From Escherichia coli (lineage in GTDB: Bacteria > Pseudomonadota > Gammaproteobacteria > Enterobacterales > Enterobacteriaceae): DNA of 30,752 nt. The notes below the pieces were generated by a model. That model was given only the letters and a program-made list of their open reading frames with translations, made no database searches and had not been told where the DNA came from. The stretch lies in assembly GCF_003334315.1 (NCBI RefSeq), contig NZ_QOWR01000055.1; one strand, written 5' to 3'. Numbering within the stretch: the stretch's first letter is position 1; every line of letters starts with the position of its first letter. A program made the translations under genes and the position numbers. Shown here piece by piece: positions 27,357-27,505 of this stretch.

Positions 27357-27391
27357 TTAGCCACCTCCGGTAATTTTTTTAAAAATTTTCT

Positions 27392-27418
27392 GAACTCTTT
27401 CTTCCCAGGCGAGTCTGA
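27392..27418 (+). promoter_or_regulatory. Sigma-E type promoter for MicA (-35 GAACTC, 16-bp spacer, -10 TCTGA)
   Basis: GAACTC at 27392..27397 and TCTGA at 27414..27418, 7 nt upstream of the MicA 5' end; matches the sigma-E consensus GGAACTT-N16-TCTGA. Confidence 0.55.
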
Positions 27419-27424
27419 GTATAT

Positions 27425-27497
27425 GAAAGACGCGCATTTGTTATCATCATCCCTGAATTCAGAGATGAAATTTTGGCCACTCACGAGTGGCCTTTTT
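27425..27497 (+). ncRNA. micA: Hfq-dependent small RNA MicA (SraD), sigma-E regulon
   Basis: Sequence gaaagacgcgcatttgttatcatcatccctgaattcagagatgaaattttggccactcacgagtggccttttt matches MicA as I recall it, including terminator hairpin ggccactcacgagtggcc + T-run; located in the luxS-gshA intergenic region, divergent from luxS and convergent with gshA. Confidence 0.85.
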
Positions 27498-27505
27498 CTT
27501 TTCTG

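Follow-up and report, generated by a model that had tools for sequence, protein, structure and literature searches.

The small RNA gene micA has been under study since 2001. Its product, MicA, was detected experimentally in E. coli K-12 as an RNA of about 70 nt from the plus strand (as oriented here), and together with Hfq it represses ompA, phoPQ and further envelope-related mRNAs in vivo, results obtained with a K-12 sequence identical to the one analysed below (review PMC4618604). Transcription of this micA strictly requires sigma-E and is induced by ethanol, heat, hyperosmolarity and, via ppGpp, entry into stationary phase; in E. coli and Salmonella the RNA is undetectable in a delta-rpoE background and raised by rpoE overexpression (PMC1851643; PMC1804206). 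Promoters of the sigma-E class have a -35 element like GGAACTT and a -10 element like (G)TCAAA (PMC1804206); for micA itself, the -10 box has been described as containing an 'invariable C', and Udekwu & Wagner 2007 pointed out an AT-rich element ahead of the -35 box (PMC1851643).

The DNA analysed here is a stretch of 30,752 nt from E. coli, referred to as the window. We estimate a probability of about 98% that its luxS-gshA intergenic locus is the micA gene of E. coli, comprising a sigma-E promoter, seed, stem-loop, linker and terminator, and acting in the Hfq-dependent repression of ompA and phoPQ; none of the results speaks against this reading. The Rfam MicA family (RF00078) matched positions 27425-27496 of the plus strand along the entire model (positions 1-75 of 75) with a score of 83.9 bits against a gathering score of 41 and an E-value of 6.7e-12 when the whole window was searched with Rfam 15. 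Scanning the gap only gave an E-value of 7e-14, and a permissive, sensitive Rfam scan of the same gap returned no competing family, the next-best model scoring 17.5 bits against its own threshold of 37. Window positions 27300-27560 (261 bp), which cover the promoter, the RNA and both flanks, are 100% identical to K-12 MG1655, and the curated K-12 ncRNA micA (b4442, 2814802..2814874) maps to window positions 27425..27497, with the positions of luxS and gshA matching too. The 6 kb around micA contain 17 SNPs relative to K-12, none of them in the intergenic region. From ygaQ to argZ the whole window is collinear with K-12 at about 99% identity, and we therefore take it to come from a non-K-12 E. 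coli strain. The features of the locus are as follows.

26841..27356, minus strand: luxS coding sequence, divergent neighbour, with its ATG at 27356, 68 bp from micA +1.
27374..27389, plus strand: A/T-rich tract upstream of the -35 box, a T-run at -50 to -45 followed by an A-run.
27392..27399, plus strand: sigma-E -35 box, GAACTCTT (published consensus GGAACTTTT; PMC1804206).
27413..27418, plus strand: sigma-E -10 box, GTCTGA (consensus GTCAAA); 16 nt separate TCTGA from GAACTC, and 6 nt separate it from +1.
27425..27497, plus strand: micA gene, the 73-nt MicA (SraD) small RNA, matching RF00078 and identical to K-12 b4442.
27432..27448, plus strand: single-stranded, target-pairing 5' seed (MicA nt 8-24), unpaired in the Rfam consensus.
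27448..27467, plus strand: stem-loop 1 (nt 24-43), present in the Rfam consensus and in the fold, its pairs kept in 96-100% of sequences among the matches listed.
27468..27474, plus strand: linker AAAUUUU, single-stranded and A/U-rich, unpaired in the Rfam consensus and in the fold.
27475..27502, plus strand: Rho-independent terminator found by a terminator scan, a hairpin at 27475-27492 followed by TTTTTCTTTT.
27506..29062, minus strand: gshA coding sequence, convergent neighbour, with its stop codon 8 bp past the annotated micA 3' end.
27688, minus strand: luxS P1 transcription start, a G at -332 from the luxS AUG and inside the gshA 3' end (PMC2956633); the minus-strand base here is G.

The initial annotation, made from the letters of the sequence, had proposed a MicA sRNA at 27425..27497, divergent from luxS, with a sigma-E promoter of the form GAACTC-N16-TCTGA and its own terminator ending 8 bp from the gshA stop; it had also named a covariance-model search as the check, with the lack of a significant Rfam match as the outcome that would speak against it. 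The search gave a MicA match at twice the gathering threshold, ending one nucleotide short of the interval to which the K-12 annotation maps, and the arrangement of the locus proved to be as described: luxS lies on the minus strand and micA on the plus strand, the hairpin at 27475-27492 is followed by a T-run on the plus strand, and the 8 bp at 27498-27505 separate the end of micA from the gshA stop codon (TCA on the plus strand, 27506-27508). The promoter coordinates likewise hold, and the sigma-E assignment agrees both with the promoter as mapped in the literature (PMC1851643, PMC1804206) and with its conservation among genera described below.

Within the promoter, a 16-nt spacer separates GAACTC (27392-27397) from TCTGA (27414-27418), and a further 6 nt lead to the G at +1 (27425), an arrangement that has the boxes, the spacer of about 16 nt and the start about 6 nt past the -10 box of a sigma-E promoter. 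The pattern GAACT-N17-TCTGA occurs once on the two strands of the 30.7-kb window, where dinucleotide-preserving shuffles give an expectation of 0.02. The A/T-rich tract at 27374..27389 resembles an UP element.

A species-representative genome collection was scanned with a 22-nt seed pattern, which returned at least 120 loci; genera among the matches listed include Escherichia, Salmonella, Citrobacter, Enterobacter, Klebsiella, Yersinia, Serratia, Pantoea, Erwinia, Dickeya, Pectobacterium, Hafnia, Edwardsiella and others. When the upstream regions were aligned on micA +1, the 107 distinct sequences among the matches listed carried on average 1.5 bits per column in the -35 box and 1.67 in the -10 box, compared with 0.48 in the spacer and 0.21 further upstream, the boxes being near-invariant across many Enterobacterales genera and the spacer variable. 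In this same set of 107 sequences among the matches listed, A-32, A-31, C-30, T-27 and T-26 were each at least 98% conserved, T-11 and C-10 reached 99%, T-9 96% and A-7 100%, and the T residues at -50 to -45 were conserved at 84-99%. This cross-genus footprint agrees with the published alignments (PMC1851643, PMC1804206) and with the 'invariable C' described for the -10 box (PMC1851643).

The predicted RNA has the architecture of MicA, namely an unstructured 5' region, an internal stem-loop and a Rho-independent terminator, as seen in the fold, the terminator scan and the pairing statistics. Its minimum-free-energy structure (-20.5 kcal/mol; z = -2.98 against shuffles) contains two hairpins, with an open 5' region, a stem-loop at nt 24-43, an A/U-rich linker at nt 44-50 and a terminator hairpin at nt 51-68 whose stem (27475-27492) has seven pairs, five of them G-C. 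From what is established about Hfq-binding sRNAs, the linker at 27468..27474 is probably the Hfq contact adjoining the terminator; the features bearing on Hfq that the sequence shows are this A/U-rich linker and the U-tail. Conservation of MicA nt 5-26 is given by construction, because the loci were collected with a pattern inside that stretch. Standard pairs occupied 98.7% of the base-pair cells in 97 distinct MicA sequences among the matches listed, and only 29-52% of cells paired in these sequences when the partners were slid by 1-3 columns. Among the matches listed, compensatory changes were found at two pairs (in stem-loop 1, one pair changes from GC to AU), the terminator stem was invariant save for its loop-closing pair, which alternates between AU, UA, CG and GC, and the terminator T-tract was nearly invariant across genera. 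The covariation support for the structure is modest, because 9 of the 14 pairs never vary.

The same hairpin, lying 8 bp past the gshA stop, is transcribed on the minus strand as well, and luxS transcripts do cross the stretch antisense (PMC2956633), which raises the question of whether the locus is only a shared cis element, a gshA terminator and/or luxS 5' leader on the minus strand, without an independent plus-strand RNA gene. We regard this as highly improbable. A T-run follows the hairpin on the plus strand only, and a simple terminator scan called a terminator there on the plus strand and none on the minus strand. Four G-U cells in the MicA stems (among the matches listed) fit the plus strand only and would become A-C mismatches on the minus strand. 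Moreover, the MicA covariance model matches the plus strand, the conserved sigma-E promoter lies on that strand at the correct distance, and the plus-strand RNA of about 70 nt has been detected by experiment (PMC4618604). Functions on the minus strand exist alongside the sRNA gene, not in its place.

A coding function was also considered, since the mechanical six-frame set lists three plus-strand open reading frames here, at 27423..27569 (48 aa), 27473..27709 and 27487..27702. We give a small protein practically no credence. The ATG at 27423 is 2 nt upstream of the mapped transcription start and is therefore absent from the RNA, all three frames run through the terminator into sequence antisense to gshA, and indels of 1, 2 and 5 nt inside the RNA in the cross-genus alignment (matches listed) rule out a conserved reading frame. 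Each of the four SNPs relative to K-12 that fall in the two longer frames (27581, 27653, 27659 and 27665) is silent in gshA but non-synonymous in either of those frames, which identifies the latter as chance products of the sequence antisense to gshA. The initial annotation had held that MicA explains the spurious ORFs 27473..27709 and 27487..27702. Both are indeed in the list and both are spurious, but micA is not the reason for them, as it shares just the first 25 nt of the former and the first 11 nt of the latter, the remainder being antisense to gshA.

The 5' seed of the RNA is complementary to the translation-initiation region of ompA. This pairing was computed on the K-12 ompA leader, because ompA lies outside the window: seed nt 8-24 and ompA positions -21 to -6, the Shine-Dalgarno region, are predicted to form a 16-bp duplex of -23.2 kcal/mol with A12 bulged, and shuffled seeds gave a mean of -13.3 kcal/mol, with 3 of 1000 matching or beating the real one. 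A prediction with full-length MicA and ompA gave an unrealistic duplex with long-range interior loops, and the calculation of seed against translation-initiation region was used instead. As the element is identical to that of K-12, we would expect it to be expressed in the present strain and to depend on sigma-E and Hfq for the repression of its targets there. Transcription starting at +1 would end at the hairpin and U-run at 27475-27497 to yield an RNA of about 72 nt, whose working parts would be the 5' seed (nt 8-24), the single internal stem-loop and the Hfq-binding A/U-rich linker with the terminator. With Hfq, the seed would pair with the ribosome-binding region of ompA, with phoPQ and with other envelope-related mRNAs; such pairing would block translation and speed mRNA decay, so that less outer-membrane protein would be made under envelope stress or on entry into stationary phase.

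MicA may also pair in cis with the long luxS transcripts that begin inside gshA. Transcripts from luxS P1 run antisense through all of micA, those from P1 and P2 are fully complementary to MicA, and a short luxS species, R3, accumulates in a manner that needs both MicA and RNase III (PMC2956633). The gene order luxS(-)/micA(+)/gshA(-) that underlies this overlap, in which the RNA lies between luxS and gshA and is encoded on the strand opposite to theirs, was kept in all 110 loci among the matches listed that had sufficient flank to either side, the other 10 being cut by the locus end. Such observations would fit an RNA that is chiefly cis-acting, with RNase III processing of the long luxS leaders coupling envelope stress to AI-2 quorum-sensing output and ompA repression in trans being secondary. 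This we consider improbable, because LuxS protein is unchanged under MicA overexpression (PMC2956633), the effect on luxS is termed unclear in a review that lists several validated trans targets (PMC4618604), and the seed, nearly invariant (at nt 5-26 as imposed by the search pattern), is complementary to ompA.

On the minus strand, a sigma-70-like match (ATGATA-18-TATACT, 27447..27418) lies in a back-to-back arrangement with the micA promoter, facing luxS; shuffles give a mean of 1.2 such matches. It was tried as a proximal luxS promoter, with a predicted start near 27411, and was not adopted because the 5' end published for the short luxS species lies near 27438, giving an overlap of 14-15 nt with MicA.

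The packing of the three genes is tight across the order. Among the matches listed, the distance between micA +1 and the luxS ATG has a median of 72 bp (range 66-178 bp in 117 loci), and the gshA stop lies about 10 bp past the terminator. Conceivably this spacing is itself functional, with stress tuning luxS and gshA by transcriptional interference, although we think it doubtful: sigma-E-driven transcription of micA could collide with gshA read-through and with transcription from luxS P1, and the MicA hairpin could serve as a weak bidirectional terminator, an idea that finds no support in the simple scan, in which no minus-strand terminator was called. If interference did occur, envelope stress would adjust the output of luxS (AI-2) and gshA (glutathione) beside the effects of RNA pairing.

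Close to luxS, a perfect 10-bp hairpin at 26786-26809 lies between the convergent emrB and luxS genes and scores as terminator-like on both strands; its T-rich tail, TTTTCAATTA, is found on the plus strand (emrB side) only, the luxS-side tail being AGTTGTACTT. In gshA, position 28591 (codon 158) accounts for the sole amino-acid difference from K-12 GshA, proline in the window and alanine in K-12.

Of 5426 complete E. coli genomes, 5424 contain the 261-bp stretch, in every case on the chromosome. Annotation of the RNA is another matter: the PGAP-annotated RefSeq genome that was examined closely carries nothing at the micA position, and the ten PGAP records listed in a 132-bp population search all have 'none' as the feature beneath the match. 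The initial annotation's statement that the element is invisible to ORF-based annotation is correct for these records, and since the gene is unmarked in the inspected PGAP E. coli records, ORF-based pipelines leave either an empty gap or spurious ORFs in its place. A covariance-model pass recovers micA at once. The feature is already known, its promoter, targets and luxS overlap all having been published; scientifically the finding adds nothing new, and its practical value lies in annotation.

Two genomes carry natural lesions in the locus. In the bloodstream isolate E. coli p10B (NZ_CP103758.1, L003:1233-3000) the insertion point of a 1768-bp ISEcp1 unit falls precisely in the sigma-E -10 box of micA (window 27413-27418), with GTCTGA duplicated on either side, so that micA retains its -10 box and has lost the -35 box. 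Only the first 63 nt of a blaCTX-M-like ORF are aboard this unit, and the right end of ISEcp1 together with this 63-nt fragment immediately precedes micA. ISEcp1 drives expression of adjacent genes, and micA in p10B may therefore be read from the element. E. coli R13 (NZ_CP107151.1, L126:3440-3575) has a 39-bp deletion corresponding to window 27406-27444, which takes the -10 box, +1 and the first 20 nt of MicA, including the seed, and keeps the stem-loops and terminator; judged by its sequence, this looks like a natural micA-null allele. Between emrB and luxS, R13 also carries two inserted genes, one of the RNA-ligase family and one for an ATP-binding protein.

Elsewhere in the window, two tandem Rfam naRNA4 matches (REP/BIME-type repeats) lie downstream of proX at 20650-20727 and 20750-20827, a site at which the window is about 95 bp longer than K-12, consistent with one extra repeat unit. 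At the opposite ends, about 95 bases (positions 1-95) have no alignment to the K-12 ygaQ region and, together with the adjacent sequence, match records with an IS1A transposase directly beside a gene of the alpha-amylase family, from which the window seems to begin at the terminus of an IS1 copy that inserted into ygaQ; and two minus-strand tRNA matches (30410-30483 and 30685-30752) correspond to the K-12 argQ/argZ tRNA-Arg(ACG) array, the second being cut by the window end.

Among described RNA regulators, the K-12 MicA (SraD, psrA10; b4442; RF00078) has the same sequence, neighbours, orientation, spacing, promoter and terminator as the element in the window, with zero differences within the element itself. 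RybB, the other sigma-E-dependent, Hfq-binding sRNA that represses omp mRNAs, shares with MicA the promoter class, the design of a 5' seed plus terminator and the logic by which sigma-E induces an sRNA that lowers outer-membrane protein synthesis (PMC1804206); it differs in having an unrelated sequence, a ybjK-ybjL locus, a different target set and no known cis-antisense partner. Antisense RNAs that are encoded in cis and processed by RNase III resemble MicA in another respect: the complementarity of MicA to the long luxS leaders is complete, and a luxS species that depends on RNase III accumulates along with MicA (PMC2956633). Unlike those RNAs, MicA has its validated outputs in trans, through a short imperfect seed and with Hfq.
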